Assembly (NCBI GenBank): GCA_964491455.1
Contig: CAZBFM010000001.1
Location: 564,903 to 628,902, forward strand
DNA: 64,000 bases
Source: an uncultured Candidatus Saccharibacteria bacterium
GTDB taxonomy: Bacteria; Patescibacteriota; Minisyncoccia; 2-02-FULL-40-12; GWA2-44-9
Direction of reading: 5' to 3'
Shown here: positions 4,214 through 29,708 of the stretch, piece by piece
How the letters are laid out: every line of letters begins with the position of its first letter
Position numbering within the stretch: the stretch's first letter is position 1
Position numbers and translations under genes: made by a program
The notes under the pieces: model-generated
The model's database searches: none
What the model saw: the letters and a program-made list of their open reading frames with translations, nothing else
Told to the model about the DNA's origin: nothing

Positions 4214-4216
4214 CAA

Positions 4217-12010: not shown

Positions 12011-12781
12011 ATGAAGTGGCCATCGTGTCTTACGCTTATCCGACATGACGTTTCAGCGTTCAACAATCTACGCGCAAAAAAGGCGCGCAGCCCTCTCTAT
12101 CAGCAGTTCATGACGGCATGGAGTGCTGACCCAGCATCCGAAGAAACGAGAGCGCTTGCAGGGCAAGTCCAGAGCGACTTCGCGCTTGGAGTGGGGGATG
12201 CAAACACACCTCTCGCCGATGACACAGGAGCGCTCGCGATCGAAACCGGCAGAGAGTTACCACGGTACATCGCGCTGCCAGACGTGATATTCACGTCGCC
12301 ATATGTGCGGACCCAAGAGACGCTTCGTTTTCTGAAGATCGGCTGGCCAAGCCTGGCGTCGGTACCCACGATCATCGACGATCGCGTCCGTGAGCAGGAG
12401 CATGGGCTCGCGCTTCTGTACAACGACTGGCGTGTTTTCCATGCACTCCATCCCGATCAGCGCAAGCTATTTGAAATGGAGGGCCCTTACTGGTATCGGT
12501 ACCCCCAGGGCGAATCTGCGGCGGACACACGCGCTCGAAACCGTGAGTTTCTGTCGATGTTGATTCGCGAATTTCGCCGTAAGAAAGTGCTGGTGATCAC
12601 TCACCACCTTCACATTCTTGCTGCAATCGCCAATCTCGAGCGGCTCAGCCCTGAAAGATTCATCGAAATGGATCGCGATGAGAAGCCGCGAAACTGCGGT
12701 GTCACCATCTTCAAGGGAGACTCCACCTTGGGGAAAAACGGCCGACTTGTTCGCGCGGCATACAATCTTCAGTTGTACTAG
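12011..12781 (+). CDS. histidine phosphatase family protein (phosphoglycerate-mutase-like fold)
   Basis: N-terminal LIRHD catalytic motif (an RHG variant) and a later ITHH motif. SD AAAGGAG lies upstream. Confidence 0.65.
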   Translation: MKWPSCLTLIRHDVSAFNNLRAKKARSPLYQQFMTAWSADPASEETRALAGQVQSDFALGVGDANTPLADDTGALAIETGRELPRYIALPDVIFTSPYVRTQETLRFLKIGWPSLASVPTIIDDRVREQEHGLALLYNDWRVFHALHPDQRKLFEMEGPYWYRYPQGESAADTRARNREFLSMLIREFRRKKVLVITHHLHILAAIANLERLSPERFIEMDRDEKPRNCGVTIFKGDSTLGKNGRLVRAAYNLQLY

Positions 12782-12788
12782 TCGTTTC

Positions 12789-12817
12789 ACCGGAAGCTCA
12801 TCGCTTCCGGTTTTTTT
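12789..12817 (+). terminator. intrinsic terminator
   Basis: ACCGGAAGC-tcatc-GCTTCCGGT followed by TTTTTTT. Confidence 0.7.
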
Positions 12818-12854
12818 ATTTCTCTATACATTTTTCTGCTATACTCAGCGCGAT

Positions 12855-14819
12855 ATGAATTCGATTCTGGATGGACTCAATGCGAAGCAGATTGAAGCGG
12901 TCACCACTATTGAGGGGCCGGTTTTGGTTATCTCGGGGCCCGGCTCCGGCAAGACGCGAGCACTGACGCACCGCATCGCGCACTTGATAACATCGGGCAT
13001 TCCTGCATCGGCAATTCTGGCGGTCACCTTTACCAATAAAGCCTCCAAAGAAATCCGAGAGCGCGTCCACAAGCTTCTAGGGACGCGAGCCTCGCAACCA
13101 ACACTTGGGACGTTTCACTCGTTGGGGCTCCGCATCATGCGTCGTCACGCCGAAAAACTCGGCTACGGCACGAACTTTACCATCCTCGACTCCAGTGATC
13201 AGCAGACACTCATGCGACGCATCATCGCTGATTTTGAACTTGACCCGAAGCGCCACACGCCGGGGGGAATGCTGAGTAAGGTGCAAAAGCTCAAAACGGA
13301 CCTCATCCACTATCGCGACTACAGTGGCACCGGATACACAGAAAAGATCGTCGCGCGACTCTACAGCGCATACCAATCCAAGCTCGAAGCTATGAACGCG
13401 GTAGATTTTGGCGACCTCATTATGTTGCCCGTGCGACTCTTTCGAGAACATCCTGATGTGCTCGCTCAATACCAGCAACAGTGGAAGTATCTCCTCGTCG
13501 ATGAGTATCAGGACACCAGCCACGACCAATATACACTCATCGGCATGTTGGCCGCGCAGCACGGCAATCTGTTCTGCATAGGTGATGACGCGCAGTCGAT
13601 ATATTTGTTCCGCCAAGCCGACATTCGCAACATCCTCAACTTCCAACGCGACTGGCCAAAGGGAAAGATTATTTTGCTCGAACAAAATTATCGCTCAACC
13701 AAAACCATTCTGGCGGCGGCGCAAGCGGTGATTTCAAATAACAAATCTCAAATTCCCAAAGACCTCTGGACCGAGAATGGGGAAGGGGATGCCATCGCCG
13801 TTACCGAGACCGTCAATGAGCGTCACGAAGCACAATACCTCATCGAGACCATCCGCAATCTCCAGAAGAAACGCTACACGCTTTCCGATGTTGCGGTGCT
13901 CTACCGAACGCATGCACAAAGCCGCGCACTCGAAGAACAGCTCGTGCGCGAAGGGGTGCCGTATCGCATTGTGGGAGGCATTCGATTCTATGAGCGTCGT
14001 GAAGTCAAAGATATTCTTGCCTACGCGCGACTCCTGCACAACGGCGCTGATGTAGTGAGCATGGAACGTATCGCCAACGTGCCCACGCGAGGCATTGGAA
14101 AGACCACCGTCGATAAGCTCATGAATATCGATGCGCCCGACCGTATCGCCGCAGTAGGCATGCTCGCCTCTGAATTTCCGCCCACGGGAAGAACCGGGAA
14201 AGCGCTATCGGGATTTCACGTGATGATGGTCAAATTACAGCGACTCGCTCAAACGGCAAAACCGAGCGAACTATTGAAAGAAATTCTCAAGCAAACCAAA
14301 TATGAAGAATATCTGCGCTCACCAAAGAGTATCGACGCAGAAAATGTAGAAGATCGCATTGAAAACGTGCGCGAACTTCTCACGGTGGCAAAAAAATACG
14401 ATGAAGCTGGGCCCGCAGGGTTGGGTCAACTCCTCGAAGAGGTGGCGCTCCTGCAAGACACTGACACGCTCGCCGCAGGAGACAGCGCGGTTACGCTCAT
14501 GTCGATGCACGCAGCCAAGGGCCTCGAATTTCCAGTGGTATTCATCTGCGGCATGGAAGAGGGACTCTTTCCACACAGCAGAACGATCTATTCACCTCAT
14601 GAGCTAGAGGAGGAGCGACGGCTCTGCTATGTCGCCGTCACCCGAGCAAAAGAGAAGCTCTTCGTTAGCATGGCAAAATGGCGTACCATTTATGGGTCGC
14701 GTCACGCAAACATACCGTCACGGTTTCTCGATGAGATACCAGCGCGCCTGCTCGCCTGGCACAAATTGGAACTTGAAGACATACCAGATCGAGAAGAGCG
14801 CATCTACTATGACGACTAA
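12855..14819 (+). CDS. uvrD: ATP-dependent DNA helicase UvrD/PcrA
   Basis: Walker A GPGSGKTRALTHRIA, DEYQDT, and the C-terminal helicase motifs (VTRAKEKL). The start at 12855 (MNSILDG) was chosen inside a longer ORF. Confidence 0.9.
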   Translation: MNSILDGLNAKQIEAVTTIEGPVLVISGPGSGKTRALTHRIAHLITSGIPASAILAVTFTNKASKEIRERVHKLLGTRASQPTLGTFHSLGLRIMRRHAEKLGYGTNFTILDSSDQQTLMRRIIADFELDPKRHTPGGMLSKVQKLKTDLIHYRDYSGTGYTEKIVARLYSAYQSKLEAMNAVDFGDLIMLPVRLFREHPDVLAQYQQQWKYLLVDEYQDTSHDQYTLIGMLAAQHGNLFCIGDDAQSIYLFRQADIRNILNFQRDWPKGKIILLEQNYRSTKTILAAAQAVISNNKSQIPKDLWTENGEGDAIAVTETVNERHEAQYLIETIRNLQKKRYTLSDVAVLYRTHAQSRALEEQLVREGVPYRIVGGIRFYERREVKDILAYARLLHNGADVVSMERIANVPTRGIGKTTVDKLMNIDAPDRIAAVGMLASEFPPTGRTGKALSGFHVMMVKLQRLAQTAKPSELLKEILKQTKYEEYLRSPKSIDAENVEDRIENVRELLTVAKKYDEAGPAGLGQLLEEVALLQDTDTLAAGDSAVTLMSMHAAKGLEFPVVFICGMEEGLFPHSRTIYSPHELEEERRLCYVAVTRAKEKLFVSMAKWRTIYGSRHANIPSRFLDEIPARLLAWHKLELEDIPDREERIYYDD

Positions 14820-15588
14820 CATTCGAGTAACCGCAAAAAAATCGCTTGGACAAAACTTTCTCGTCAACGAGGGTGTACTTGATCGGATTATCGCAGCGGC
14901 ATCCATAACCTCAACGGACACCATCGTCGAGATAGGGCCGGGGACTGGAGCGCTCACTCAGCGACTCGCTGCCACAGGCGCTCGTGTTCTTGCGCTCGAG
15001 AAAGACCGTCGACTCATAGAGCCTCTCAAAGAATCCTTTGCTGCAGCTGGTCACGTCTCCATCGCAGAAGCTGATGTTCTCGCCTGGCAACCACCGTTCA
15101 CCGCTGGCACCTACAAAGTAGTCGCCAATATTCCATACTACCTCACCTCAAATCTATTACGTCGCATGCTTGAATTGTGGCCATCGCCGTCAAAAGCAAT
15201 CCTCATGGTGCAATATGAAGTCGCTAAGCGCATGATGGCGCGCCCAACTGATATGAATCTTTTGGCGCTGTCAGTGCAACTATTCGCTCGTCCGTCGCTA
15301 GTGATGCGCGTGTCTCCGGGAAGCTTCCGCCCTGCACCCGATGTTGATTCGGCGGTGATATCGCTGGTCATTGACACACTCACAGATGAGCAAAAAAAAC
15401 GTAACACTCGCATCCTCGCCCTTGCGAGGCCTGCATTTGGTCAAAAACGAAAGCAACTCAAGACGACTATCGCATCGGACATCCTCAAATCAGCCAACAT
15501 CTCACCAACCGCACGCCCGCAAGAACTCTCGGTGGACGACTGGATTCGTATCGAGCGAGCATCGAATAGATATGCACATGAAGTGTAG
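14809..15588 (+). CDS. rsmA: 16S rRNA (adenine1518/1519-N6)-dimethyltransferase RsmA/KsgA
   Basis: LGQNFL, VVEIGPGTGALT and NIPYY motifs. The start overlaps the uvrD stop. Confidence 0.9.
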   Translation: MTTNIRVTAKKSLGQNFLVNEGVLDRIIAAASITSTDTIVEIGPGTGALTQRLAATGARVLALEKDRRLIEPLKESFAAAGHVSIAEADVLAWQPPFTAGTYKVVANIPYYLTSNLLRRMLELWPSPSKAILMVQYEVAKRMMARPTDMNLLALSVQLFARPSLVMRVSPGSFRPAPDVDSAVISLVIDTLTDEQKKRNTRILALARPAFGQKRKQLKTTIASDILKSANISPTARPQELSVDDWIRIERASNRYAHEV

Positions 15589-15625: not shown

Positions 15626-16540
15626 ATGAGTGGAAGAATAAAACTCCTACTCGCTCTTTTAGCCGCGGGTGCCGGCCTGACTTTTTGGTACTCAACACGC
15701 TCTCTCTTCGCTGACACGCCAGCAAGCGCAACGATCGCAAAGACCTTCACAGCCGACGCGACGTGTAGCGATCAAGATGGTGATGGCCTTTGCGATTATG
15801 ATGAAACCTATTGGTCTACGGATTTTAACAATCCCGACTCTGATGGTGACGGATTTAAAGATGGGGAAGAGGTGCTCTCGGGACATGATCCCGCAAAGGC
15901 TGGCCCCGATGATGCTATTCGCAAACAAGAAAACCTCACGCAAAAAGCAGGAAAGATGATATTGGGTGCAATGCTGACCGGTGACATCGCCGACAATAGT
16001 GCGACCTATGAAGCATCCGTCCAAAAATTAATCGATCTACTATTCCAGCAATATGACGCGAACACAGCGATCGACCTGGATTCTATTGTTAAAGCTCCCG
16101 CGGGAAGCGCGAGCACAATCCAATACAGTGCCGCGATGTCACGCATCCTCACGCAAATGATGCCTGAAATTCAGGCAAATGAGCTCGCCGTTCTAGAAAC
16201 GATTCGTGATATTCAAATCGAAGACTTGCCCCGCCTCGATACAAGCAGCCCGGAGAAGTACGCGGCATTCATTCATGCAATTGATAATGAAATCAGCGCA
16301 TACAACGAACGCGTCAACGCGATCAAGTCCGTTCGAGTGCCCACATCGCTTGTCTCGTTTCACACATCGCTCATTCAGTATCTCCGCGGTGCCCAACAGC
16401 AATACCGAATGATACGCACCATCACGAAAGACCCCGTGCAGGGGCTCTTGTCGCTCCAAGTGCTTCATACGCTAGTCTCAGAAACATCGGCGCAAATAAC
16501 GGAATCGTTCACGAGACAGGTAACAAGTGCACTCCCATGA
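15626..16540 (+). CDS. membrane-anchored protein with thrombospondin-type-3-like Ca-binding repeats
   Basis: N-terminal TM, then DQDGDGLCDYDE and DSDGDGFKDGEE repeats. First gene of a co-directional cluster. Confidence 0.5.
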   Translation: MSGRIKLLLALLAAGAGLTFWYSTRSLFADTPASATIAKTFTADATCSDQDGDGLCDYDETYWSTDFNNPDSDGDGFKDGEEVLSGHDPAKAGPDDAIRKQENLTQKAGKMILGAMLTGDIADNSATYEASVQKLIDLLFQQYDANTAIDLDSIVKAPAGSASTIQYSAAMSRILTQMMPEIQANELAVLETIRDIQIEDLPRLDTSSPEKYAAFIHAIDNEISAYNERVNAIKSVRVPTSLVSFHTSLIQYLRGAQQQYRMIRTITKDPVQGLLSLQVLHTLVSETSAQITESFTRQVTSALP

Positions 16541-18153
16541 GAACTTCTCGACTTACCTCCACGACACTTCTCATCCTCTACGTGTGCGCGTTTACGTATC
16601 TTGGCGCGCTGCTGGGACTAACACTCACTCGTGCAGCTCAACCAATCGAATTTAAAAATGGCCAACCACCAAGTAGCTTGAGCGTCGGACAAATTATTGC
16701 AGAAGCAGGACTCAATGGGGGCAAGTATCAGGCATGCAAAGGGGATATCTTTACGCTCTTTCAAGGGCAACTCGACAAAAAACTTACGAGAGTCGCCACT
16801 GAATTAGTCTCTGACGCATTACGCGCATACAAAGATCAAATGGCTTCGTATCTTGTATGCCGCGCTGAAAGCTTCCTTAATAATTTGTGCGTTTTTGGTA
16901 GCTGCGCAGGAGGAGGCATTGATTGCAAGAAGCCGATTGCAAGTGATGTGACATCATATCTCAAATTAAATTGGAAGGACTCTCTCAAGTCATCATTTTT
17001 AGCGAGCTGCACATCTCTTTACGCACTCAAATTCACTGGCGACACCGTGGACCAAAACATCCTTGAAAACGGCCCCGGTGGCGCTCCCGCCTATGCGACG
17101 AACTGGATTGAGACCGCCAACACAGCCTCAGATAAAGAGGGGAAGCGGCGATTCTGGACAATTCTGTCTAACACGAAGATTTGCCCGTATTTCAAGGAAG
17201 AAGTGTATCGCTATTTTGAAGTTCCTAGAGAATACATCGAGACTCCTCCACTCATGAACGCTTCTGACATGCAGGTGTCTGCTGATACTCCATTTACTCT
17301 TGTAGGCGGATGCACACTTCCTACGCAAGAGTTCGATACAGGTTCCTACGAATTTCTCTCCAAACTCATCGAGCCTCAGAATAACTTTAACGGCTTTGTG
17401 AGATTAGCCGAGGAAGAACAAAAGAAGCAACGAGAAGCAGCCGTATCCGCTGCCAAAGAACAACTGATTGCCGGTGGGGGATTTCTACCCACGTACGCGT
17501 CGGGAAGTTGCAACGAGGATCCGAACGGTAAGTGCATTAGCTACGGTGGCATCGCATTGCCACCGGGTGCAGTTCGGGACTCTCGTATGGCAGATATTAC
17601 GGCAAATTATAATAAGATGCTCCAATCAAATGGAGAGAATTATGTTGGCATGACCGACCTCGGTGCGCGCTTGCAAGTCCGTATCTTGGGGCTCATGAAC
17701 AAACCGCTTCCACTCAAGCTTGAGCTTGGCTCCGAATTTGATGAAGCAAACTTTACTCCCATTGCCACTCCCGTTACTGGCACCAACCCCAATGATCCAA
17801 CATGCACCGGTGGCAACGCGCAATGCACCTGCGTCAAAGACAATCCAGACGCCCAGAGGATCGCCTCGAGCATTCTTGCTCCGGCGATTGAGCGCGCCCG
17901 GTCCAAGCACCCCGAATTTTTTGTGACTGGGTCAAGCCAAATTGCGCCAGGCGTCGATTACCGCCTCGTACTTGCGGCCATCTGCAGCGACTTCAGCGCT
18001 GTTTGCGCTCCTCATCCAAACCAAGACGATGAAATTGTTATTATCAGCGCCGATGGCCTGACCATTTCCTACGATGTCATCACTGGAGATGGCTACGCAC
18101 GCACCGATGGGGGAGCCCCCGTAGCGCAATGTGAGCCTGGTATTCAAAACTAG
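16537..18153 (+). CDS. Cys-rich secreted/membrane-anchored hypothetical protein
   Basis: 538 aa with an N-terminal TM or signal, many Cys and no known domain. 4-nt overlap with the upstream gene. Confidence 0.5.
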   Translation: MRTSRLTSTTLLILYVCAFTYLGALLGLTLTRAAQPIEFKNGQPPSSLSVGQIIAEAGLNGGKYQACKGDIFTLFQGQLDKKLTRVATELVSDALRAYKDQMASYLVCRAESFLNNLCVFGSCAGGGIDCKKPIASDVTSYLKLNWKDSLKSSFLASCTSLYALKFTGDTVDQNILENGPGGAPAYATNWIETANTASDKEGKRRFWTILSNTKICPYFKEEVYRYFEVPREYIETPPLMNASDMQVSADTPFTLVGGCTLPTQEFDTGSYEFLSKLIEPQNNFNGFVRLAEEEQKKQREAAVSAAKEQLIAGGGFLPTYASGSCNEDPNGKCISYGGIALPPGAVRDSRMADITANYNKMLQSNGENYVGMTDLGARLQVRILGLMNKPLPLKLELGSEFDEANFTPIATPVTGTNPNDPTCTGGNAQCTCVKDNPDAQRIASSILAPAIERARSKHPEFFVTGSSQIAPGVDYRLVLAAICSDFSAVCAPHPNQDDEIVIISADGLTISYDVITGDGYARTDGGAPVAQCEPGIQN

Positions 18154-18155
18154 AT

Positions 18156-20846
18156 ATGAATTTTCGCAAGGCATCTTCTATTATTCTGCTTCTTCTGATC
18201 ATCATCTGGCCTCAACCAGCGCACGCATTTGGCGAGGGGGCGATGGCGACCGTTTTGAGCGTTTTTAATGCCGTCATTGAAATTATTCAAGCGGCAATTG
18301 TGAAGCTTCTTATTACGTCGGGTCAACTCCTTCAAGACGTCATCCATCTTGAGATGTCGTACGGGGGAGCAGCTGTCTATATGGTCTGGAAAATCTTTCG
18401 CGATATTTGCAATTCGCTGTTTATCATCTTTTTCATCATCATCGCCTTTAGTACCATCTTCAACTCTATCGCCCCGAAAGGCTTAAAGCCCTATTTCTGG
18501 AAGGAAGCGCTCACCAATGTCATCTTGGCTGCGATTTTGATTAATTTTAGTCTCCCCATTGGGCAGGCGATGATATGGGCTGGCAACGCATCTGGTAGCT
18601 ATATGCTCAAGGCAATAGGAGTTGGCGATTTTGGCAAAAAAATTGCCGAAAATCTCAATTTTGCCGCTGTCATTGCTGGAACAAGCGCACAGCAATATCC
18701 CACCGTTTCTGTAGACTTTCCGGAATCGAGCAATCTTTCCGCTGCCAACCTCACTGGCGTTCAGTCTTGGGTAGCTGCATCGCAATACGACACAGCACTT
18801 GGCCAGGCAGCACGCGCTGCAATACCCGTTATGAAAAAGTGTCTGGAAGCGAATCGTCCGCCAGTGGAATGCTACAACGAGGGAGTCGCTATGCATAAAA
18901 ATGAATTGATAGTTGCCGCCGACAAAGACGCCAAGGCAAAAGCGGCGGCGGAAAAAGCGCAAGCTGATTACGACGCTTGTATGAATCCATCATCGCCGAA
19001 TCGAGATAGCGTCGTCGTAAAAAATTGCGGTGAAAAACCACCTTCCGCTCCTAGCTCCGACTACCTAATGGACGCCGGGCAGTATACTCGTTTCTTTGGA
19101 TCTATGCTTCTCACTGGAAAGTGGGCAATCACCGCGCCCTCGGGCCCCACAGACTTAGACGGGCAGGTGAGTTTATTACTAAGTAATATCCTTCATCTCA
19201 TAATGATGCTTGCCATCGTATTGTCGTTTTCATCGATCATCATCTTCCAGGTTGCGCGTATTCCTGCGGGATGGTTTCTCCTCTCATCGTCGGCAATGGC
19301 ATTTTTTTCGATAGCTATGCCAGGCTCAACTCTCTTTGGTAAGTGGCGCGATAATATGATTGGATGGGCACTCTTTACGCCGCTCTATCTTTTTGTGATT
19401 TATATTGGATTGTTTGTGCTCGAACAACGAGGCACGCTTTTGGCAAGCATGAGCAACGCTCAGATGCCATTTTTCATGGGTAAACTGGGAATTGTACTCT
19501 TCTACTTCATCACGGCATTTATTTTCATGCGTGGTGCGAAGTGGGCACAAGAAACGGCATTCGGGTATAGCAAGATGGCGGGCACAGCATTTGGCGCAAT
19601 CGCGTCGAGGATGGGTGTCGATGAGAAGTCCAACTTTGGCCTCACAACAGCGGCGGGTGGTCTAGCGAAGTATTCTGGCGCACAAGGAGCCTACGAGTCC
19701 GTGAAAGCCACGGGCGAGGCACGCATCGCAAAGATGAAGCAGGGGATCTCTGACAGCTCGTTTTTGGCAATGCCTTCTTATTTGCGATCTAAAACCTATG
19801 CTGAAAAACTTGCTGAGGGCAAAGCCGCGATGGGAGTGCGCGGCGCGGATGCCGAAGTGGATAAATTCCTTCAAGAAAGGATCAAGGGTCACAAAGAAAG
19901 AATTGAATACGAGGCAGATAAAATCACTGATAAAACTAAGAAAACCGCCTATCTTCAATCTCAACTCAACAGCGGAAATCGCGATGTAGCGCTGGCCGCT
20001 GGCGAGATACTCCTCAAGCAAGGGAAGCTCACCCCAGCTCAAATCTCTATGCTTTCTGGTAAGTATGGAGACATTTCTCAGGTCGCTAAGAAAGAATTCC
20101 AGAAGCGAGTCACTGAGCAATCCAAGAAAGATGCGCGCAAATTGGTCCCAGCAAATTTTGCAGAACTACTAGAGCGCGTAAAAGTAGCTGGAAAATCAGA
20201 AGACAAACGGGCATTCCTTGAAGCTGGTTTATCAGGAGAGATAGGCCAGATGAAGCTATCCGGTGCAGACTTATTAGCGCTCACGGGTGAAATGGATAGC
20301 GTCGAAGACAAACGGGCATTCCTTGAAGCTGCCACTAAAACCGGCCGCAACAAAGTAACTGCCATTGAAACTATGGCCAACCTTGGGCTCATAACGGATC
20401 GAAATGGTGTTAAAACTTCTGCGGCTGAAGCGATTGAAGACCGTGCGAAATCTTTATCAGATGTAGATCTACTGGATGCAGAAGAGTACTTTCATGCCGG
20501 AGGGAAGCCCATGTCTCCAGTATTGAAGGAGAAAATGAAGCAATCAATTAAGAATCCGGAAAAGTTTGGTCAAATTATAAGAAACGTCTCGGGTCCAGAT
20601 CAGCAACTACGAATACTCGATGAATTTTCAGATATAAAACACGCTAGTTCAATTGCGCGACGGGACGTTAAAGAACTTGAAAAGAAAGAGCGGAAATACG
20701 CGAAAGGAATCAAGCAATTACAAAAGAAGGCTGATAAATTGGTCGGTGCTAAGAAGAAACGAATAGAAGACTGGATTGAGGATTTGGAGGTAAAACGAAG
20801 CGAAATGAAGGAAGAGATGCAGAAAAAGAAAAAAGAAATAACTTAA
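18156..20846 (+). CDS. polytopic membrane protein, VirB6/TrbL-like (putative), with Lys-rich coiled-coil C-terminus
   Basis: At least 7 predicted TM helices in the first ~480 aa, then a long charged or coiled-coil tail ending KKKKEIT. Lies 1.5 kb upstream of virB4. Confidence 0.45.
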   Translation: MNFRKASSIILLLLIIIWPQPAHAFGEGAMATVLSVFNAVIEIIQAAIVKLLITSGQLLQDVIHLEMSYGGAAVYMVWKIFRDICNSLFIIFFIIIAFSTIFNSIAPKGLKPYFWKEALTNVILAAILINFSLPIGQAMIWAGNASGSYMLKAIGVGDFGKKIAENLNFAAVIAGTSAQQYPTVSVDFPESSNLSAANLTGVQSWVAASQYDTALGQAARAAIPVMKKCLEANRPPVECYNEGVAMHKNELIVAADKDAKAKAAAEKAQADYDACMNPSSPNRDSVVVKNCGEKPPSAPSSDYLMDAGQYTRFFGSMLLTGKWAITAPSGPTDLDGQVSLLLSNILHLIMMLAIVLSFSSIIIFQVARIPAGWFLLSSSAMAFFSIAMPGSTLFGKWRDNMIGWALFTPLYLFVIYIGLFVLEQRGTLLASMSNAQMPFFMGKLGIVLFYFITAFIFMRGAKWAQETAFGYSKMAGTAFGAIASRMGVDEKSNFGLTTAAGGLAKYSGAQGAYESVKATGEARIAKMKQGISDSSFLAMPSYLRSKTYAEKLAEGKAAMGVRGADAEVDKFLQERIKGHKERIEYEADKITDKTKKTAYLQSQLNSGNRDVALAAGEILLKQGKLTPAQISMLSGKYGDISQVAKKEFQKRVTEQSKKDARKLVPANFAELLERVKVAGKSEDKRAFLEAGLSGEIGQMKLSGADLLALTGEMDSVEDKRAFLEAATKTGRNKVTAIETMANLGLITDRNGVKTSAAEAIEDRAKSLSDVDLLDAEEYFHAGGKPMSPVLKEKMKQSIKNPEKFGQIIRNVSGPDQQLRILDEFSDIKHASSIARRDVKELEKKERKYAKGIKQLQKKADKLVGAKKKRIEDWIEDLEVKRSEMKEEMQKKKKEIT

Positions 20847-20849
20847 TTC

Positions 20850-21365
20850 ATGAATCCAGAGATAGTAGCCGAAAAAATACCAGCGCCGTTCATCTGTCTT
20901 TTGATGGGGAGGGACGCGGATGAACAATATCTGCTTTCTGCCGCTTTCCTAGCGCTCGATGATTCTGAGCAAGAGATTCTAGTCGGGGAAAGTACTGTCA
21001 AAGAAATTGCAACCTGGATTTCGAGTGGTTTATTACCTCAAACCCATGCGGTCGCGATAGCAAAAATCATAGGAATGCTAGCATTAGAAGACGACATCTC
21101 CCCGGGCGCACTTCCTCAAATTCTCGATAGCATCGGCATTCAATCTGCGGCAAAGTTAATTCTCTCTGAAAAGATAACTCAACTCGTTCAGCCATTCCTT
21201 GAAGACACGAACGAATTTGAACCCGAAACACCTCCTTCGCAGTCCCTTAATTCGACACCAACCATCGCGCCGCTGTCGCCGCTTAGAACATCGAAGCCTG
21301 TGCCCGTGCCACCTCCGCCAAACCGTACTACAATAGACCTACGAGATAAGAAATTAACACCGTGA
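20850..21365 (+). CDS. hypothetical protein (Pro-rich C-terminus)
   Basis: 171 aa, tightly packed between the TrbL-like and VirB3-like genes. Confidence 0.45.
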   Translation: MNPEIVAEKIPAPFICLLMGRDADEQYLLSAAFLALDDSEQEILVGESTVKEIATWISSGLLPQTHAVAIAKIIGMLALEDDISPGALPQILDSIGIQSAAKLILSEKITQLVQPFLEDTNEFEPETPPSQSLNSTPTIAPLSPLRTSKPVPVPPPPNRTTIDLRDKKLTP

Positions 21366-21679
21366 GATTTCAAGTCCCACAATTTATTGATACCGAGACC
21401 AAGCTCATTGGGCCTTTCACGTTAATGCAGTTTTTGTTTGTAGCTGGCGGCGTGAGCCTACTTTCGGTTGTGTGGATACTCTTCAACGGCATTTTGTTTG
21501 CCATTCTCGCGCTCCTCATCGCTGCATTTTTTGGCTCACTCGCATTCTTGCGTATCGATGGGCAGCCATTTCTCAATTATTTAGCCTACATGTTGGCGTA
21601 TGCGCTTGGCTCTAAGAGGGCAGTGTATCAAATCAAGCAGGAACCGAATCAATTTACTCCACCCACGCATGGCAACTGA
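21362..21679 (+). CDS. small two-TM membrane protein, VirB3-like (putative)
   Basis: 105 aa with two TM helices. Encoded immediately upstream of virB4 with an 11-nt overlap, as virB3 is in T4SS operons. Confidence 0.4.
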   Translation: MRFQVPQFIDTETKLIGPFTLMQFLFVAGGVSLLSVVWILFNGILFAILALLIAAFFGSLAFLRIDGQPFLNYLAYMLAYALGSKRAVYQIKQEPNQFTPPTHGN

Positions 21680-22307
21680 AACCTCTACAACCGATCTCAT
21701 TCAAATTCAGGAATTGCGTGATGGGGTGCTTATCCTTAAAGACGGGTCGTTACGCGCCGTGGTCAAGATATCGGCAATCAATTTTGAGCTTCGCTCAAGC
21801 GATGAACAGCAAGCAATCCTGCAGCAGTTTGGGGCGTTTATGAATTCCATTGATTTTCCAATACAAATGGTTGCTCATTCTCGTCGATTCGATATTACTA
21901 CCTACCTCGCTAATCTTGAATCGGCTACGCAAGGTCTCACCAACGACCTCCTGAAGGTGCAGTCGGGGGAGTATGCAAGATTTGTTCGCGAATTGTCAGA
22001 GCTCGCCAATATCATGCAAAAGAATTTCTACGTCGTACTCCCTATGGAGGTCACAGCAACATCCGAAAGTACGGGATTCTTTGGAGGCATCAAGGAGATG
22101 TTTAAGAAAACACAAAGAGCACAATCGCTCTCGTCAGACCAGCTCGCCCTGTTTCGCTCTCAGCTCCAGCAACGCGCTGACCTGATATTAGGAAGCGTCT
22201 CTGGTATGGGCCTGAAGGGCTCTATGCTTGAGCAGGAAGAGCTCGTAGCTCTGTTCAATGATGTCTACAACCCCGTTGTACCCGCCGCACCTCAACCTAA
22301 CGCGTAA
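21669..22307 (+). CDS. virB4: VirB4/TrbE N-terminal domain fragment (ends at in-frame TAA 22305-22307)
   Basis: IQIQELRDGVLILKDGSLRAVVKISAINFEL..QQAILQQFGAFMNSIDFPIQM matches the VirB4/CagE N-terminal domain. It is in the same frame as the following ATPase ORF. Confidence 0.6.
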   Translation: MATETSTTDLIQIQELRDGVLILKDGSLRAVVKISAINFELRSSDEQQAILQQFGAFMNSIDFPIQMVAHSRRFDITTYLANLESATQGLTNDLLKVQSGEYARFVRELSELANIMQKNFYVVLPMEVTATSESTGFFGGIKEMFKKTQRAQSLSSDQLALFRSQLQQRADLILGSVSGMGLKGSMLEQEELVALFNDVYNPVVPAAPQPNA

Positions 22308-22310
22308 CCT

Positions 22311-24056
22311 ATGGAACTACCACCTGTCGGAGTATCTACAACACTTGCGCCCTCGGCAATAAAAATATCGCCCAACTTTTTGCAGGTCGGCGACAAATAC
22401 GCACGAACCATCTTTATAGCGACCTATCCGAGATTCTTAAATGCCAACTGGCTCTCGCCCATAGTGAACCTTGATAAGGTGCTCGATGTTTCGATTTTCG
22501 TAACACCGCAATCGACCGCCACTATGCTCAAGCAGTTGCGCGACCAGCTCACTCGCGTGCAATCTCAACTCATGGAAGAAGAGTCGGCGGGAAAAGTGAG
22601 AAACCCCATGCTTGAAACGGCAGTCGGTGACTTGGAATCGCTGCGTGATAGCCTTCAACAGGGGACCGAGCGATTCTTCCAGGTTGGACTCTACGTCACC
22701 ATGTATGAAAACAGCCTCCACGACCTCGACGAAACAGAGGGGAAGATAAAAAGCATACTCGATGGCCTCCTCGTGATTCCTAAGCAGACATCGTTTCGGA
22801 TGCTGGAAGGTTTTCTCACTACCTCGCCACTGGCCGATGATCGCATCCGTGCATTGACCCCGCTCAATACTCAACCCATCTCGTCGATGTTCCCGTTTGT
22901 GTCCAGCGACCTTACTTCCAACACGGGTATTCTATACGGTATCAACACCACCAATAACAGCATGGTGATATTTGATAGGTTCTCGCTTGAAAACGCAAAC
23001 TCCGTCATGTTTGCAAAATCAGGAGCCGGAAAAAGCTACACGGTGAAGCTTGAGCTTCTTCGCTATCTCTATCTGGGAACGCAGGTTCTCGTCATTGACC
23101 CTGAAAATGAGTATGGCTTTTTAGCGGATACTGTCGGAGGCACCAACGTTATAATCTCCATCAATTCCGATCAGCATATTAATCCGTTTGATTTACCAAC
23201 ACCGAAAGACGAAGAGTCTTGGAGTGACGTATTTAATTCGCATATCCTAAACTTAGCCGGACTCATGAAGCTCATCATGGGAGGGGGACTCACGCCCGAA
23301 GAAGAATCCATGCTCGATGAGGCGCTCATTCAAACATATGCGATTAAAGATATTGTGCCCGATTCAGATTTCTCCAAGCTTCCACCGCCTATCCTTTCTG
23401 ATCTTCACAACATTCTCTCCGGCATCACCGGCGCGGAGCGGATGGCAACACGTTTGGAAAAGTTTACCACGGGTACCTTTGCGGGCTTCTTGAATCATCC
23501 GACCAATGTACCACTCGATAATAACCTCGTTGTATTTGGTCTTCGTGACTTAGAGGACGAGCTCCGTCCAATCGCGATGTATTCGGTGCTTAATTATATC
23601 TGGGCGCAGGTGCGTCGTATACGAAAGAAGCGAATTCTCGTGGTAGATGAGGCGTGGGTACTCATGAAATACCAGACCGGTGCAGAATTCTTATTCAATA
23701 TCGCAAAGCGTGGACGTAAGTATTACTGCGGACTCTCGACGATCAGCCAAGACATTCCCGACTTCATGTCCACGCCGCAGGGGAAGGCAATCGTCACCAA
23801 CTCATCGATGCAAATGCTCATGAAACAATCACCCGCTTCCATCGATATCATTCAGCAAACGTTCAACCTTACCGATTCTGAGAAATTCTACCTCCTGGAA
23901 GCACGCGTAGGCTTTGGATTGTTCTTCCTCGGCGCTAACCACGTGGGCCTGCGAGTAATGGCTTCGTACGCAGAAGATCAAATCATCACATCCGATCCTC
24001 GTCAGCTTCTCGAGATAGAGAAGGCAAAAGAGGAGTGGGCTAAAGTAGGCAATTAA
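22311..24056 (+). CDS. virB4: VirB4/TrbE/CagE-family type IV secretion ATPase (C-terminal ATPase part)
   Basis: Walker A FAKSGAGKSYTVK, Walker B ILVVDEAW, and VGDKYARTIFIATYP at the start of the middle domain. Confidence 0.85.
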   Translation: MELPPVGVSTTLAPSAIKISPNFLQVGDKYARTIFIATYPRFLNANWLSPIVNLDKVLDVSIFVTPQSTATMLKQLRDQLTRVQSQLMEEESAGKVRNPMLETAVGDLESLRDSLQQGTERFFQVGLYVTMYENSLHDLDETEGKIKSILDGLLVIPKQTSFRMLEGFLTTSPLADDRIRALTPLNTQPISSMFPFVSSDLTSNTGILYGINTTNNSMVIFDRFSLENANSVMFAKSGAGKSYTVKLELLRYLYLGTQVLVIDPENEYGFLADTVGGTNVIISINSDQHINPFDLPTPKDEESWSDVFNSHILNLAGLMKLIMGGGLTPEEESMLDEALIQTYAIKDIVPDSDFSKLPPPILSDLHNILSGITGAERMATRLEKFTTGTFAGFLNHPTNVPLDNNLVVFGLRDLEDELRPIAMYSVLNYIWAQVRRIRKKRILVVDEAWVLMKYQTGAEFLFNIAKRGRKYYCGLSTISQDIPDFMSTPQGKAIVTNSSMQMLMKQSPASIDIIQQTFNLTDSEKFYLLEARVGFGLFFLGANHVGLRVMASYAEDQIITSDPRQLLEIEKAKEEWAKVGN

Positions 24057-24061
24057 CACCA

Positions 24062-25063
24062 ATGCCCGAGCAATTATCCCAACGCAGCGCCTCGCCACGG
24101 ATGACCGATATTCGGCCGCAGCAACTTCGTGCGCCTTCGATTCCATTGCCATCCCGCAGTGACCACGTTGCGTCCAGAAAAACTAGTTCATCTCAACTCA
24201 ATACAATCCTCGACGGCTATGATCATGCGACTGCACTTTTTGCATCCCTTCGAAGAACTCAGCAGGGAATCTCTAGCGCATATACACAGGTTCAAAAAGG
24301 TCACGCACGCGAAATGGACGACGCCTCACTCGATGCCGCACGAAAGGTAAAGAAACCCTCTAAGCTTCGGTATTCGCTCTTCATTTGGCTTTGTATTATT
24401 GCAGATACCGCTGGCGCGGCTCTCATAACCGGAGCTTTTGCGGCAGCCCCAGAAACGTTTGGAGTTGGCGCGGTTCTAGGAATTCTAGTAACGATATTGA
24501 TAACGATCATCATGTGGATTGGATCTAGAATTTTTCTAGGAAAACGAGCAAAGGAAGTAAAAGAACACATCGACCAGTTGCGAGAAAAATCAAAGGATCT
24601 TGCACGTGACATTCAGGTGGCACAACAACAATACAACAATCTGTTGACCTGGATGGGCACTGCGAAGAAAGAATTCCCTCAGCTGGCCTCGCAAGGAAGC
24701 GCGCTTATTGTAAAAGCAGGCGCTCTTGCACAGAAAACAAACATGATTAAATACTCTGGAAAAGCCATGATTTGGGTGAGTAACATCATAAAAAATCCTA
24801 TCTTCGTCCGCATCAGCGAGTTAATTCCTTTTTGGAATATATTGCCCTGGTGGACGATTGGCGCGGTAGCAACATACATCTCGCATAAGGCTGACTGGCG
24901 TGAGGCACAAGATATACTAAATGGTTATACGAGCGGCAAACAAGAAGTAATGAACACTACTAGCGCACTCTATAAAACGCGCCTTGCTCTGACTCAAGCA
25001 ATTTTCAAAAAGAATATCAATACATTAACTGCAAACCAACTTCATGAAGCGGCGACAACTTAA
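24062..25063 (+). CDS. hypothetical membrane protein of the T4SS-like cluster
   Basis: 333 aa with TM helices around residues 105-150 and a coiled-coil segment. No known domain. Confidence 0.5.
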   Translation: MPEQLSQRSASPRMTDIRPQQLRAPSIPLPSRSDHVASRKTSSSQLNTILDGYDHATALFASLRRTQQGISSAYTQVQKGHAREMDDASLDAARKVKKPSKLRYSLFIWLCIIADTAGAALITGAFAAAPETFGVGAVLGILVTILITIIMWIGSRIFLGKRAKEVKEHIDQLREKSKDLARDIQVAQQQYNNLLTWMGTAKKEFPQLASQGSALIVKAGALAQKTNMIKYSGKAMIWVSNIIKNPIFVRISELIPFWNILPWWTIGAVATYISHKADWREAQDILNGYTSGKQEVMNTTSALYKTRLALTQAIFKKNINTLTANQLHEAATT

Positions 25064-26201
25064 TTTTATGTCACCTTCGCCTCACTCTCTTCGCACTCTT
25101 CAAGTGAGCACCTTTGTCGTACTGGCAAGTTGCGTCGCGCTAGGATCTGCTCTCATAGGTAAGAACGGAGAGACCACAGATTTAACCGCTTCCATCGCTG
25201 ACGCCACCTCACCCTCAACGCCCACTACCTCAATCGAACCACCACGCGAGCGAACTCCAAAAGTAGTAAGTGAAAACACTGTTCTCTCGTCTGCGGTTGA
25301 CCAAGGTCGAGATTCAATACGATTCTTTGAGAAAGATACTGGCAAGTCATTTCGAGTTGATGTATCAAATCTCACAACCTCAATTATCTCCGCGGATAAG
25401 ATTATCGGTTTTCAAAGGGGAGCGTGGGTGCCACTCGCACAAGGCGCTCTTATCTTTGCTCGTGAGCCGTCTGGCGTTCGTGTAAAATACCTTCGCTTCA
25501 GTAATCAATCATCAATCACACTCGATAGTTCGTTTGTAGATGCAGCGGTTTCCCCAGATGGGCAGCGTGGGGCTTTCATTCAGGAAAACAACAATGATTC
25601 GCGCACGATCCTTACCGCAGCTCTTGATGGATCAAATCCGAGAGAATACCTCGTGACCCGCGCATCGGATATGCGTCTGTATTGGAAATCAAATGATGCG
25701 CTTTCATTTACCTCACGAAGATCGGACCATGCAGGCTATGACCTTACAATTGTTGACTCCGCACATATCTTGAGACAACTACTGACGAACAAGGAGAATC
25801 TTGAATTGTCTTGGTCGCCCGATGGGAAGCGTCTTTTGTACTCGTATTTTAGCCCAACTGATGGAGTTTCGTTGTGGATCTGGGATGAGAACACCGCAAT
25901 GAGCGCGCCACTTCTCGTACCGACGAGTGCACAGAAATGTGCATGGACTCCACAGGGGGATTCTATTGTCTGTGGTATTCCCGCAAAAAACACTCTCACT
26001 CGCGATATACCTGCCGATAAAACGGCAACGATAGATAATATCGAAGTCATCGACCCCACAACGAATGCGCGACGTCGTATATACACGGGCGTCCCTGGTC
26101 GTCTATTTGGAGTAACAAAACCGCTCGTAACAACGAGCGGGGAATACTTCGTTTTCACGAATATGTTTGACGCTCGGCTCTATGTAGTGCCACTACAATA
26201 A
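25044..26201 (+). CDS. secreted protein, TolB/WD40-like beta-propeller (putative)
   Basis: Signal peptide and repeated ...DG.R..Y....DG.S.W.W... blades (SPDGQRGAFIQ, SPDGKRLLYSY). Confidence 0.45.
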   Translation: MKRRQLNFMSPSPHSLRTLQVSTFVVLASCVALGSALIGKNGETTDLTASIADATSPSTPTTSIEPPRERTPKVVSENTVLSSAVDQGRDSIRFFEKDTGKSFRVDVSNLTTSIISADKIIGFQRGAWVPLAQGALIFAREPSGVRVKYLRFSNQSSITLDSSFVDAAVSPDGQRGAFIQENNNDSRTILTAALDGSNPREYLVTRASDMRLYWKSNDALSFTSRRSDHAGYDLTIVDSAHILRQLLTNKENLELSWSPDGKRLLYSYFSPTDGVSLWIWDENTAMSAPLLVPTSAQKCAWTPQGDSIVCGIPAKNTLTRDIPADKTATIDNIEVIDPTTNARRRIYTGVPGRLFGVTKPLVTTSGEYFVFTNMFDARLYVVPLQ

Positions 26202-26202
26202 C

Positions 26203-26661
26203 CTACGCAGACGGCTTAATAACGACACGCCGGAGCGGATCTTGTCCTACGCTTTCGGTGGAAAGATCACTATAGGAAGCAAGCTCAGTGTGCACAACAC
26301 GACGCTGATAGGATGTCATTGGCTCGAGAGCTTCGGAGCGCTTTGTCTGCTGAACACGCACGGCCGTCGCATGGACTATATCGATGAGTTGTTGTGTCTG
26401 TTCGGCGCGATAGTTATTGACATCAACGGTCACCGCTCGCTGATCAAGCTCATTACGAACTGCCACCATCCGTACGATATGCTCTAATGCTTTGAGGTTT
26501 TGCCCGTTCTTTCCGATAAGCAACCTTCCGTCCTCGGCAACGCTCAGCGCAACACGTACCGCTCCATTCTCAGCGGTAACCGACAGCTCGCAGGGGATTT
26601 GCATGCACGATGTTACGTGGCGAACAAATTCTTCGATTTTTTGTGTCGAGCTTGAGCTCAT
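26203..26661 (-). CDS. jag: Jag/KhpB RNA-binding protein (KH + R3H)
   Basis: KH-like LLIGKNGQNLKALEHI and R3H YQRRVVHTELA motifs. Lies 3' of yidC as in the canonical operon. Confidence 0.8.
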   Translation of the reverse strand: MSSSSTQKIEEFVRHVTSCMQIPCELSVTAENGAVRVALSVAEDGRLLIGKNGQNLKALEHIVRMVAVRNELDQRAVTVDVNNYRAEQTQQLIDIVHATAVRVQQTKRSEALEPMTSYQRRVVHTELASYSDLSTESVGQDPLRRVVIKPSA

Positions 26662-26675
26662 GTGGCAAGTATGCC

Positions 26676-27356
26676 TTATGAACGCCGTAAATACAACTGC
26701 TCACCAATTGACCAAAGCGAGGTGGTTACCCAATAGAGAGCGAGTCCCGCTGGCAAGTTCCAGCTAATCACAATAATCATCACCGGGAGCATATACATCA
26801 TCTGCTGACCGATAGCGGCCGTCTGCGGTGAAGAAGATTGACTTGCCATAGCGGTGCGCGCCTGGAAAAACTGGGTCACTCCTGCGAGTATGGCAAGGAT
26901 CGGATTTTTCGCACTAATATCGAGGACACCGAACATCATGTGATTTATCACGCCTGGGTGCGGCATAAATGAATACAGTAGATTGAGTGTCTCCGGTTTA
27001 AATATATTAAGAAACACCTGGTACACACCTATAAGAATAGGTAGCTGCAACAGCAGAGGGACGCAACCAGCTAGGGGATTAACTCCTTTTTCTTTATAGA
27101 GTGCCATCACCGCCTCAGATTGAGCGGTTGTATTTCCTTTATGTGTTTCTTTAAGTTTCTCTATATGCGGGGCTAGCTCCGCCATCGCTTTTTGTGACTT
27201 TGCTGTTTTGATCGAGAGTGGTAGTAGTGCGGCACGCACAACGACGGTCATCGCTATGATCGCAACGCCGAGATCATGAAATCCCAATGTCGAATACAGG
27301 AGAACTGTAAGGTTGAGGATGGGTTGATAAACAAGGGATGTGAATAAAGATTTCAT
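26676..27356 (-). CDS. yidC: membrane protein insertase YidC (short form)
   Basis: Conserved NPLAGCVPLLLQLPIL region and 5 TM helices. Confidence 0.9.
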   Translation of the reverse strand: MKSLFTSLVYQPILNLTVLLYSTLGFHDLGVAIIAMTVVVRAALLPLSIKTAKSQKAMAELAPHIEKLKETHKGNTTAQSEAVMALYKEKGVNPLAGCVPLLLQLPILIGVYQVFLNIFKPETLNLLYSFMPHPGVINHMMFGVLDISAKNPILAILAGVTQFFQARTAMASQSSSPQTAAIGQQMMYMLPVMIIVISWNLPAGLALYWVTTSLWSIGEQLYLRRS

Positions 27357-27586
27357 GTGGAGTGTGTTTGTTGTGCTACAAAAAATGAGTGACAGCCAGC
27401 AAAACGTCGAACCGCTTTCATGGTGCCAATAACAACACCGTGATTTTCAATAACAGAATATGCGTACTCAGAACAGGTTGGCCATGAACAGCATCCCGAA
27501 TACGCCGGCAACAAAAAGGGAGTGGCCACGCCACTTCGCGTAATCGCTTGATACAATCGAATACCCCTCAGGAGGATGTCCTTCAT
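27353..27586 (-). CDS. yidD: membrane protein insertion efficiency factor YidD
   Basis: CxxxPSCSEY signature (CSWPTCSEYA). Confidence 0.85.
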   Translation of the reverse strand: MKDILLRGIRLYQAITRSGVATPFLLPAYSGCCSWPTCSEYAYSVIENHGVVIGTMKAVRRFAGCHSFFVAQQTHST

Positions 27587-27927
27587 GACTGAAGGATACC
27601 AGATTTCTTGAGTAGCAGCATTAGCGTTGCTTCGAGTTCATCCTGAGAGTTCGGCGTACTACGAACAGTAACAAGGAGGGAATAGCCTGTGCGTATTTTA
27701 TGCTGCGCAATGAGGTGTCTCATACATTCTAATACTTTTCGCTTCATCTCGTTTCTCATGTGCGCCTTTGCAATGCCGCTCGACGGCACCACAACAGCAA
27801 CTCTATAGTCTGCGGTAGTAGGCTGAATTCGTAAGGAAAATCCCAGCACATTACTAGGACGCGTGGAAGAAAACAGCGTTGAAATATCTTTTGCCCGCTT
27901 TAGACGATGTCGTTTTGGGAGTGCCAT
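27583..27927 (-). CDS. rnpA: ribonuclease P protein component
   Basis: Basic 114-aa protein (LPKRHRLKRAKD...), positioned between rpmH and yidD. Confidence 0.85.
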   Translation of the reverse strand: MALPKRHRLKRAKDISTLFSSTRPSNVLGFSLRIQPTTADYRVAVVVPSSGIAKAHMRNEMKRKVLECMRHLIAQHKIRTGYSLLVTVRSTPNSQDELEATLMLLLKKSGILQS

Positions 27928-27978
27928 AATGAGATATCCACTCTAACAGCACACCGCCCCTTGTTGGGGCGGTGTTGA

Positions 27979-28116
27979 CTACACAGAAAGACGTGCTCGT
28001 CCCTTTGATCTCCGACGGGCGAGAACCTTCCGACCTGACTTTGTTTCCATACGAGAAAGAAACCCATGTTTGCGGCTCCGTTTCAGTTTCTTTGGGCGAA
28101 AGCGTGTAATTTTCAT
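27979..28116 (-). CDS. rpmH: 50S ribosomal protein L34
   Basis: Hand-translated 45 aa [45 protein letters not shown]. Not in the ORF track because it is under 60 aa. Confidence 0.85.
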
Positions 28117-28325
28117 AGCGTCGTTGTGTGATATGCGCACGTAAGCGCTTCAGTGAGAAGTCTACTATGTTTGATCATGCGAGTCAATATTTACCCGCAG
28201 TTTTCCACCTGTTATAAACACTCTATCAACTTATTGAGGTTTACTGTTCGCTTGAGAGAGTTTCATAGGACTGTATACTGGCGACACATGAGAAGCACGC
28301 GTATGATTTTTCTAATTCGTAATTC

Positions 28326-29708
28326 ATGACCACTGTTGCGCCTGATGACATTTGGAAAACAGTGCTTGGTGAAATGGAACTCTCTCTTTCACGTGCGCAC
28401 TTCACCACGTGGTTCAAAAACACCAATGTGGTCACACGAGATCAAAATTCTGTGACCGTTAGCGTCCCGAATGGATTTGTGAAGGAATGGCTCGAGAGTA
28501 AATATAATCGTCAGATACTCACATCGATTCGAAAGCTCTCAAATGAGATCCGCGAAGTAAAGTATATCGTGGGACAACCAAAACCGGAGCCTCTCCGCCA
28601 AGATATATCGAAGATTATTAGCGAGAAGGAGTTTCAGGAGCAGGTTACCTATGATCAGAGTCAAGACGTTGATAAGGTTACTCATTTAAATAAGAAATAC
28701 TCATTTGATTCCTTTATTGTTGGTGGATCAAATGAATTCACCTTTGCATGTTCTCAAGCTGTTGCTGCAAATCCCGGGAAAAACTATAACCCGCTCTTCG
28801 TGTATGGGGGAGTTGGTCTTGGAAAGACCCACCTCATTCAATCAATTGGCAACCAAGTTCTGCAACAGTGGGGTGACAAGAAAGTCCTCTATACAACAGG
28901 CGAAAAACTCACTGCCACTATTGTTGAATCGATTAAAAATCGGACCGTGGAAGACGTGAAGACACAATACTCGAAACTCGACCTACTCATCATCGATGAT
29001 ATTCAGTATATCGCTGGCAAAGACAAGACACAGGAAATTGTATTCACGATTTTCAATGAACTTCACAATCGGAATAAGCAGGTAGTATGCACTTCTGATC
29101 GACCACCAAAAGCAATCCCAGCAATCACAGAGCGTCTCCAGTCTCGACTCGAAGGGGGGATGCTCGCGGAGATTAATATGCCAGACTACGAGACGCGATT
29201 AGCAATCTTAAAAACAAAGAGCCAAGAGAAAAATTGTCCACTGACCGACGAAGCCCTTTCGTATATTGCTACGCACATCCAAAAGAATGTACGAGAACTC
29301 GAGGGTGCTCTTAATAGAGTTATCGCCATAGCACAGATCTATAATCGAGTTCCTGACGTGAAAGAGATTAAGAACATTCTGAATGCATACCTTGCAGTGC
29401 CATATAGGAAGACGTCCCCGCAAGTAATACTCAAGACAGTCGCGGATTTCTTTACTATTCCTGTAGCAGACCTCACAAAACGTAGTCGCAAGAAAGAAGT
29501 TGTAAAGCCACGGCAAATTGCTATGTACTTACTACGAGAGGAAATAAAACTTTCATTCCCCGAAATCGGCCAGAAACTTGGCGGACGTGATCACTCAACC
29601 GTAATTCACGCGTGCGAGAAGATACGTCGAGAAGAAGGTGTTGATGAGCCACTCAAAAATGAGCTCACCATGATTCGACAGAGGATTTACGATTCGTTTG
29701 AGCACTAA
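28326..29708 (+). CDS. dnaA: chromosomal replication initiator DnaA
   Basis: AAA+ Walker A GGVGLGKTHL and the C-terminal DNA-binding domain (RQIAMYLLRE...GGRDHSTVIHA). Confidence 0.95.
   Translation: MTTVAPDDIWKTVLGEMELSLSRAHFTTWFKNTNVVTRDQNSVTVSVPNGFVKEWLESKYNRQILTSIRKLSNEIREVKYIVGQPKPEPLRQDISKIISEKEFQEQVTYDQSQDVDKVTHLNKKYSFDSFIVGGSNEFTFACSQAVAANPGKNYNPLFVYGGVGLGKTHLIQSIGNQVLQQWGDKKVLYTTGEKLTATIVESIKNRTVEDVKTQYSKLDLLIIDDIQYIAGKDKTQEIVFTIFNELHNRNKQVVCTSDRPPKAIPAITERLQSRLEGGMLAEINMPDYETRLAILKTKSQEKNCPLTDEALSYIATHIQKNVRELEGALNRVIAIAQIYNRVPDVKEIKNILNAYLAVPYRKTSPQVILKTVADFFTIPVADLTKRSRKKEVVKPRQIAMYLLREEIKLSFPEIGQKLGGRDHSTVIHACEKIRREEGVDEPLKNELTMIRQRIYDSFEH

Follow-up and report, generated by a model that had tools for sequence, protein, structure and literature searches.

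A separate TrsD-like gene precedes a short-form VirB4 ATPase gene in a chromosomal type IV secretion locus of Patescibacteria

Positions 21669-24056 of the window, by which we mean the whole 64,000-nucleotide stretch of DNA analysed here, very probably comprise two genes, distinct but transcribed together, that belong to a chromosomal type IV secretion system (T4SS) of Patescibacteria, one encoding a TrsD-like protein and the other a short-form VirB4. Such a two-gene arrangement of VirB4 is normal in the T4SS loci of Patescibacteria (CPR) and has already been described. The TrsD-like protein would correspond to the first ~200-210 residues of a canonical VirB4. An earlier note, made from the sequence alone, had read the junction of the two ORFs as a VirB4 ATPase gene interrupted by a single in-frame TAA; our analysis shows that the first gene ends at this TAA in the ordinary way and that the second starts, just as ordinarily, at the ATG following it. 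The features discussed below are listed in Table 1.

Table 1 Features of the TrsD-like/VirB4 locus and its surroundings (positions in the window)
Feature	Position	Strand	Evidence or remark
Tightly packed nine-gene operon	15626..26201	+	junctions -20 to +5 nt
Gene for an 896-aa protein with 7 TM-like segments	18156..20846	+	hydropathy; no family match
Gene for a PrgI family (VirB3-like) small membrane protein	21362..21679	+	Pfam PF12666, E 7e-10, above cut-off; 2 TM-like segments (hydropathy)
TrsD-like gene for a 212-aa protein without TM segments, putatively the VirB4 N-terminal subdomain on its own	21669..22307	+	homologues
Stop codon TAA of the TrsD-like gene	22305-22307	+	genuine stop; sequence and stops of orthologous upstream ORFs
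Intergenic spacer CCT, 3 nt	22308-22310	+	termination-reinitiation coupling probably occurs here
Gene for the short-form VirB4 ATPase, 581 aa, with the rest of the N-terminal half and the Walker A/B ATPase domain	22311..24056	+	NCBIfam, Pfam, PDB 4AG5
dnaA	28326..29708	+	

Results

Direct reading of the sequence at 22290-22320 gave the letters cct caa cct aac gcg TAA cct ATG gaa cta cca, and the ORF listing placed 21600..22307 and 22311..24056 in one frame, the downstream ORF starting with the ATG at 22311. The translation across the TAA is YNPVVPAAPQPNA*PMELPPVGVS, and the segment around the junction is rich in proline (7 of 20 residues). The TAA, the ATG 3 nt downstream of it, the common frame and the proline-rich surroundings of the stop are therefore all as the earlier note had described them. 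The listed upstream ORF opens at 21600, and alignments with its homologues place the start at the ATG at 21669 (MATETSTT...); residues 201-212 of the protein, next to the stop, were predicted with low confidence (pLDDT ~50). TAA is the most frequent stop of the long ORFs within the window (22 of 38), and an unrelated pair of genes in the operon, 18156..20846 followed by 20850..21365, shows the identical layout of an in-frame TAA, 3 nt and an ATG. A reassignment of TAA to a sense codon was considered and rejected, because no stop is used more often in the window than TAA and because the orthologues end with TAA, TGA or TAG at the junction. No Shine-Dalgarno-like motif was seen upstream of the CCT spacer and the ATG at 22311, nor ahead of any other start in the nine-gene operon.

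When the upstream ORF was compared with a local Pfam copy, from which PF26593 is absent, no family was matched even at E 10; PF26593 is a precomputed label carried by all of its homologues. With NCBIfam, we obtained matches that stayed below the cut-offs but were consistent with each other, all falling on N-terminal positions of four VirB4 models. VirB4_plasma was matched at positions 101-233 of 894 (E 8e-10, below cut-off), the CD1110 VirB4 profile at positions 3-153 of 752 (E 4e-7, below cut-off) and TIGR00929 at positions 7-167 of 792 (also below cut-off). The 201-position TrsD/TraD model NF041427 was matched by residues 12-61 only (E 8e-7), and with a score of 29 bits, where the cut-off is 200 bits, the ORF is a remote relative, and not a member, by that model. 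The N-domain profile had no match among the PDB sequences. The encoded protein is small and free of TM segments, and its gene lies behind an overlapping PrgI gene and ahead of a short ATPase gene, which is the position of a TrsD-type gene. Position, size and remote homology together make the upstream ORF TrsD-like.

The downstream ORF reached 344.7 bits with conju_CD1110 (NF045971; cut-off 325, E 1e-102), was matched by P-loop_TraG, AAA_10 and DUF87 of Pfam, and holds a Walker A (KSGAGKS) and a Walker B (LVVDEAW) in its translation. Its residues 201-560 match the VirB4 C-terminal domain of PDB 4AG5 (E 5e-40), and residues 108-531 match residues 306-738 of TrwK (E 4e-4). It occupies only positions 190-733 of the 752 positions of the CD1110 profile, however, and thus departs from the one-polypeptide architecture of CD1110, the first ~190 profile positions being on a separate polypeptide. 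By score and motifs, the ORF can be assigned to the CD1110-type VirB4s, without their one-piece architecture. The upstream and downstream ORFs tile this single VirB4 profile in order (3-153 and then 190-733 of 752), and the break comes ~200 residues into VirB4, within the N-terminal half and far upstream of the ATPase domain. A tblastn search of plasmids with the ATPase returned only distant VirB4 homologues (<37% identity).

The top 120 homologues of the upstream ORF (46-100% identity) are all 195-220 aa long, and the top 120 of the ATPase ORF (69-100% identity) all 555-591 aa. A search of 1.84 billion cluster representatives with the N-domain profile yielded 3,585 matches at E <=0.001. Among the best 150 of these 3,585 matches there were 148 new representatives, 146 of which are stand-alone N-domains of 147-443 aa, with low-complexity tails in the longer ones. 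Fused full-length VirB4s made up the other two of the 148, P0362 (797 aa) and P0365 (898 aa). The upstream ORF aligns to residues 5-213 of P0362 and the ATPase ORF to its residues 230-796, and the linker at the split site is variable in these fused relatives, being ~16 aa long in P0362 and ~120 aa long and rich in Pro and Ala in P0365. A fission within such a variable linker would be structurally tolerated.

We retrieved 73 genome loci encoding a relative of the upstream ORF, with labels of Paceibacterota, Yanofskybacteria, Saccharibacteria MAGs, Nanosynbacter, Daviesbacteria and generic Patescibacteria, and placed both genes by tblastn. Two loci were left out because of a stretch of N (L057 and L031), and two because the contig ends before the ATPase gene (L044 and L061); an apparent fusion of the two genes in L057 was rejected because the reading passes through the stretch of N. 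Another locus, L059, had no VirB4 within 4 kb downstream of the relative. The clean junctions amounted to 69, i.e. the window and 68 genome loci. The upstream ORF has its own stop in all 69 (TAA in 37, TGA in 21 and TAG in 11), and the split is at one position throughout, down to 30% identity, which shows that it is deeply conserved. The two ORFs overlap in 25 junctions, typically as ATGA but also as TAATG, and are separated by 0-10 nt in 29, by 11-50 nt in 10 and by more than 50 nt in 5; thus 54 of the 69 are overlapping or at most 10 nt apart. Relative to the stop of the upstream ORF, the ATPase ORF is in frame 0, +1 and +2 in 17, 16 and 36 junctions, respectively. Because the frame varies to this extent, the frame shared by the two ORFs in the window is incidental, an accident of the 3-nt spacer, and frame sharing is no more frequent than expected by chance.

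The closest genome locus, L001, is from a Paceibacterota MAG and is 95-99% identical. In L001-L006, where the small protein is 63-95% identical, 3 or 6 nt separate an in-frame TAA from the start of the ATPase ORF, and a 3-nt insertion at the junction of L003 preserves the frame. In L007, where the small protein is 62% identical, the ATPase ORF is out of frame, as it is in L008. L005 and L007, both labelled Yanofskybacteria, read TAAtccATG and TAAccATG, respectively, showing that an indel of 1 nt in the spacer switches the frame relation. With the in-frame TAA in L001-L006 and the out-of-frame arrangement in L007 and L008, the shared frame is inherited within a small clade and is unconstrained. 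Compared with L001, dN/dS (Nei-Gojobori) amounted to 0.078 (upstream ORF) and 0.037 (ATPase ORF), and the upstream ORF evolves about 2x faster than the ATPase ORF. Synonymous sites were saturated in the comparisons with L002-L008, where protein identity was 60-75% for the upstream ORF and 81-90% for the ATPase. Both ORFs are under purifying selection, judging from these ratios.

Within the nine-gene operon, the 3' end of the PrgI gene overlaps the start of the TrsD-like gene by 11 nt, and the clustering of VirB4, TrsD-like and PrgI/VirB3-like genes at the locus is as in the chromosomal T4SS of Patescibacteria. The operon adjoins the origin region, which consists of rpmH-rnpA-yidD-yidC-jag on the minus strand and dnaA-dnaN on the plus strand; the rnpA- and rpmH-like ORFs were identified by eye from their translations. 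A gene for a KsgA-type methylase (ksgA) lies just upstream, and the minimum of the cumulative GC skew was found at 28-30 kb of the window.

Discussion

In a previous report (PMC12102498; Quinonero-Coronel et al., Microb Genom 2025), TrsD was described as a remote homologue of the N-terminal portion of VirB4, with 2,272 homologues in Patescibacteria, of which 1,664 adjoin virB4 and 608 are elsewhere, and the T4SS loci of Patescibacteria were located near dnaA, ksgA, rnpA and rpmH. The locus in the window resembles them in its small VirB4-N-related gene beside virB4, in its PrgI/VirB3-like gene and in its chromosomal position near the same four genes, and we found no substantive difference between the pair in the window and the TrsD + VirB4 pair of Patescibacteria. 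In the report, TrsD figures as a component in its own right, to which no function is assigned; the junction is not dissected and the term "split VirB4" is not used. For Ca. Southlakia epibionticum ML1, a TrsD homologue is listed there as essential, after the Tn-seq data of Wang et al. (2023) as cited in the report.

Like the one-piece VirB4s, such as those of the CD1110 family, TrwK of R388 and the Thermoanaerobacter protein of 4AG5, the two ORFs combined cover the whole VirB4 profile in order; unlike them, the window has the first ~190 profile positions on a polypeptide of their own. In the structure of the R388 T4SS, the N-terminal domain of VirB4 contacts VirB3. With two separate genes, a ribosome ending at the TAA would most likely re-initiate at the ATG at 22311 by translational coupling; we infer this because there is no Shine-Dalgarno-like motif, because the spacing is operon-like and because the junctions of relatives overlap. 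Such coupling would lead to roughly matched amounts of the TrsD-like protein and the ATPase. The small protein presumably assembles non-covalently with the ATPase and the VirB3-like PrgI protein, and in this way the detached subdomain would take over the membrane-anchoring and assembly job done by the covalent N-terminal subdomain in a one-piece VirB4.

Several other explanations of the junction can be considered. If a recent nonsense mutation had split a one-piece virB4, the locus would be a pseudogene or on the way to becoming one. The stop is in frame, the fused relatives P0362 and P0365 are known, and most T4SS classes have a one-piece VirB4, all of which would suit such a mutation, but we consider it extremely improbable: pSK41 and all 69 junctions share the position of the split, both halves are under strong purifying selection, stand-alone proteins of uniform length are found throughout the top 120 homologues of either ORF, and L001, in spite of its 95-99% identity, has no sense codon at the site. 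A false stop produced by a sequencing or assembly error, which can be raised as a general possibility only, has a similarly negligible chance of being correct. The independent MAG of L001 carries the identical aacgcgTAAcccATGgaa junction and five more assemblies (L002-L006) have a TAA at the homologous site; moreover, a 97%-identical 212-aa protein (P0002) is encoded on 4 other contigs, and the ATPase ORF has an ATG of its own that is conserved as the start among relatives.

It is very unlikely, too, that the TAA is read through at a low level, in a programmed or tolerated way, and that some one-piece VirB4 is thereby added in the subclade formed by the window and L001-L006. This subclade keeps the in-frame TAA despite the synonymous saturation against L002-L006, and the 3-nt insertion in L003 left the frame intact; if readthrough were true, it might be the reason why the in-frame TAA is retained, and the secretion ATPase ring would be of mixed subunit composition. 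However, the spacer of L007, which comes next in identity of the upstream protein, is 1 nt shorter so that the frame is broken, and L008 is out of frame as well. A fused product cannot be required when all three frames, together with ATGA and TAATG overlaps, occur across the family, and both the standing of TAA as the commonest ordinary stop of the window and the in-frame TAA of the unrelated operon pair speak against readthrough. A recoding site should keep the zero frame and a single stop across relatives, while we found the distribution of 17/16/36 over frames 0/+1/+2 and 25 overlaps. A different kind of alternative concerns the upstream protein itself, which might be derived from VirB4 but have an independent role, for example as an assembly factor or a regulator, beyond that of a detached subdomain bound to the ATPase. 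Many stand-alone homologues with long low-complexity C-terminal tails, the TrsD homologues that lie away from virB4 (L059, and the 608 mentioned above from PMC12102498) and the ~2x faster evolution relative to the ATPase would all agree with such a role. We nevertheless regard it as unlikely, since tight or overlapping adjacency to the ATPase gene is very frequent and since the two ORFs are colinear with the VirB4 profiles and with the fused relatives, with the break at the linker. The place of the gene right after a VirB3-like gene would also mirror the contact between VirB3 and the N-terminal domain of VirB4 in the R388 structure.

The earlier note had listed four explanations and leaned towards a tolerated or functional split. 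One of the four, a genuine two-polypeptide VirB4, is now strongly supported by the lengths of the homologues, the selection on both ORFs and the 69 junctions. Those lengths and that selection, together with the free frame relation and the overlapping stop and start codons, contradict the other three, i.e. a recent nonsense mutation, a sequencing or assembly error and readthrough. To speak of an interrupted gene, and to lay weight on the TAA being in frame, was misleading, because the site is a normal gene boundary in a packed operon. For annotation, this means that the junction should escape flags for a pseudogene, a frameshift or an assembly error and that the two ORFs should stay unmerged. 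Fitting labels would be "TrsD-like VirB4 N-terminal-domain protein" for the 212-aa ORF and "intact short-form VirB4" for the 581-aa ORF. The locus is also a further example of the T4SS that has been reported, in the data cited above for a cultivated Saccharibacterium, as essential for epibiotic growth.

The order of a small protein, TrsD/TraD and a short VirB4-like ATPase (TrsE/TraE) is shared with the staphylococcal conjugative plasmids pGO1 and pSK41, of an MPF-FATA subclass. The pSK41 record shows trsD (227 aa) overlapping a small gene upstream of it, and 14 nt after trsD comes a gene for a 672-aa DUF87 ATPase; the small upstream protein is annotated as hypothetical only, and the label PrgI/VirB3-like applies to its counterpart in the window. 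Residue 24 of the ATPase in the window aligns to residue 50 of pSK41 TraE (E 1e-42, 25% identity), and hhalign gave a colinear alignment of the N-domain profile with pSK41 TrsD (22-204 to 47-216, 163 columns, E 8.7e-5, 21% identity) with a probability of only 60%, so that the similarity is remote. The ATPase alignment nonetheless puts the break point of pSK41 at the same place as that of the window. A fission point common to Patescibacteria and pGO1/pSK41-type plasmids, and located at the variable linker of rare fused relatives, makes a small addition to the published description; it would be consistent with one old fission event, without being proof of it. The two systems differ in other respects: pSK41 encodes a conjugation system that is plasmid-borne and includes a relaxase and a coupling protein, whereas the system of the window is chromosomal and lies beside oriC.

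Junctions in the operon and in related loci

The arrangement at the boundary between the TrsD-like gene and the VirB4 ATPase gene, an in-frame TAA followed by three nucleotides and an ATG, is also found at 20844-20852, the second such junction in the T4SS operon, where it lies between two unrelated genes encoding the 896-aa and 171-aa proteins. The junctions of the operon are all tight, with spacings of −20 to +5 nt at nine of nine, and no Shine-Dalgarno-like motif was detected at any of them.

Among the relatives of the TrsD-like N-domain, two are true one-piece VirB4 proteins (P0362, 797 aa, and P0365, 898 aa); in one of them the split site is occupied by a ~120-aa Pro/Ala linker. Some stand-alone N-domain proteins have Pro/Ala/Gln/Thr-rich C-terminal tails of 100-230 aa; P0256, P0273 and P0276 (378-443 aa) consist of the N-domain and such a low-complexity tail. 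In two of the fetched loci, L057 (~4380-4480) and L031 (~4680), runs of N, which are masked sequence or scaffold gaps, sit exactly on the TrsD/VirB4 junction, and a fused ORF in L057 was rejected since the N run itself produced the look of a fusion. In another locus, L059, PrgI-like and TrsD-like ORFs are both present (3485-4588) and tblastn with E-values up to 10 found no VirB4 ATPase gene within 4 kb downstream; this TrsD homologue is not adjacent to virB4.

Surrounding genes

Family assignment was weak or absent for several operon genes (15626-21365 and 24062-26201), and the 896-aa protein is a possible VirB6/PrgH analogue.

Features of the operon and its surroundings
Feature	Position	Strand	Remarks
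UvrD-type helicase	12618..14819		
KsgA-type methylase	14629..15588		start as listed
TSP3-repeat protein	15626..16540	plus	operon; family weak/none
538-aa protein		plus	operon; one N-terminal TM-like segment; family weak/none
896-aa protein	18156..20846	plus	operon; seven TM-like segments; family weak/none
171-aa protein	20850..21365	plus	operon; family weak/none
333-aa protein		plus	operon; two TM-like segments; family weak/none
385-aa protein		plus	operon; beta-propeller (PD40/TolB-like); family weak/none
jag/khpB	26203-26661	minus	
yidC	26676-27356	minus	
yidD-like	27353-27586	minus	
rnpA-like	27583-27927	minus	
rpmH-like	27979-28140	minus	
dnaA	28326-29708	plus	
dnaN	29944-31035	plus	

Upstream, the helicase ORF overlaps the listed start of the methylase ORF by ~190 nt. 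Because the KsgA Pfam match begins only at residue 68, the actual start of ksgA probably lies downstream of the listed one. On the other side, 26203-31035 is the replication-origin neighbourhood; the cumulative GC-skew of the window reaches its minimum at 28-30 kb, and dnaA lies only ~2 kb beyond the end of the operon.
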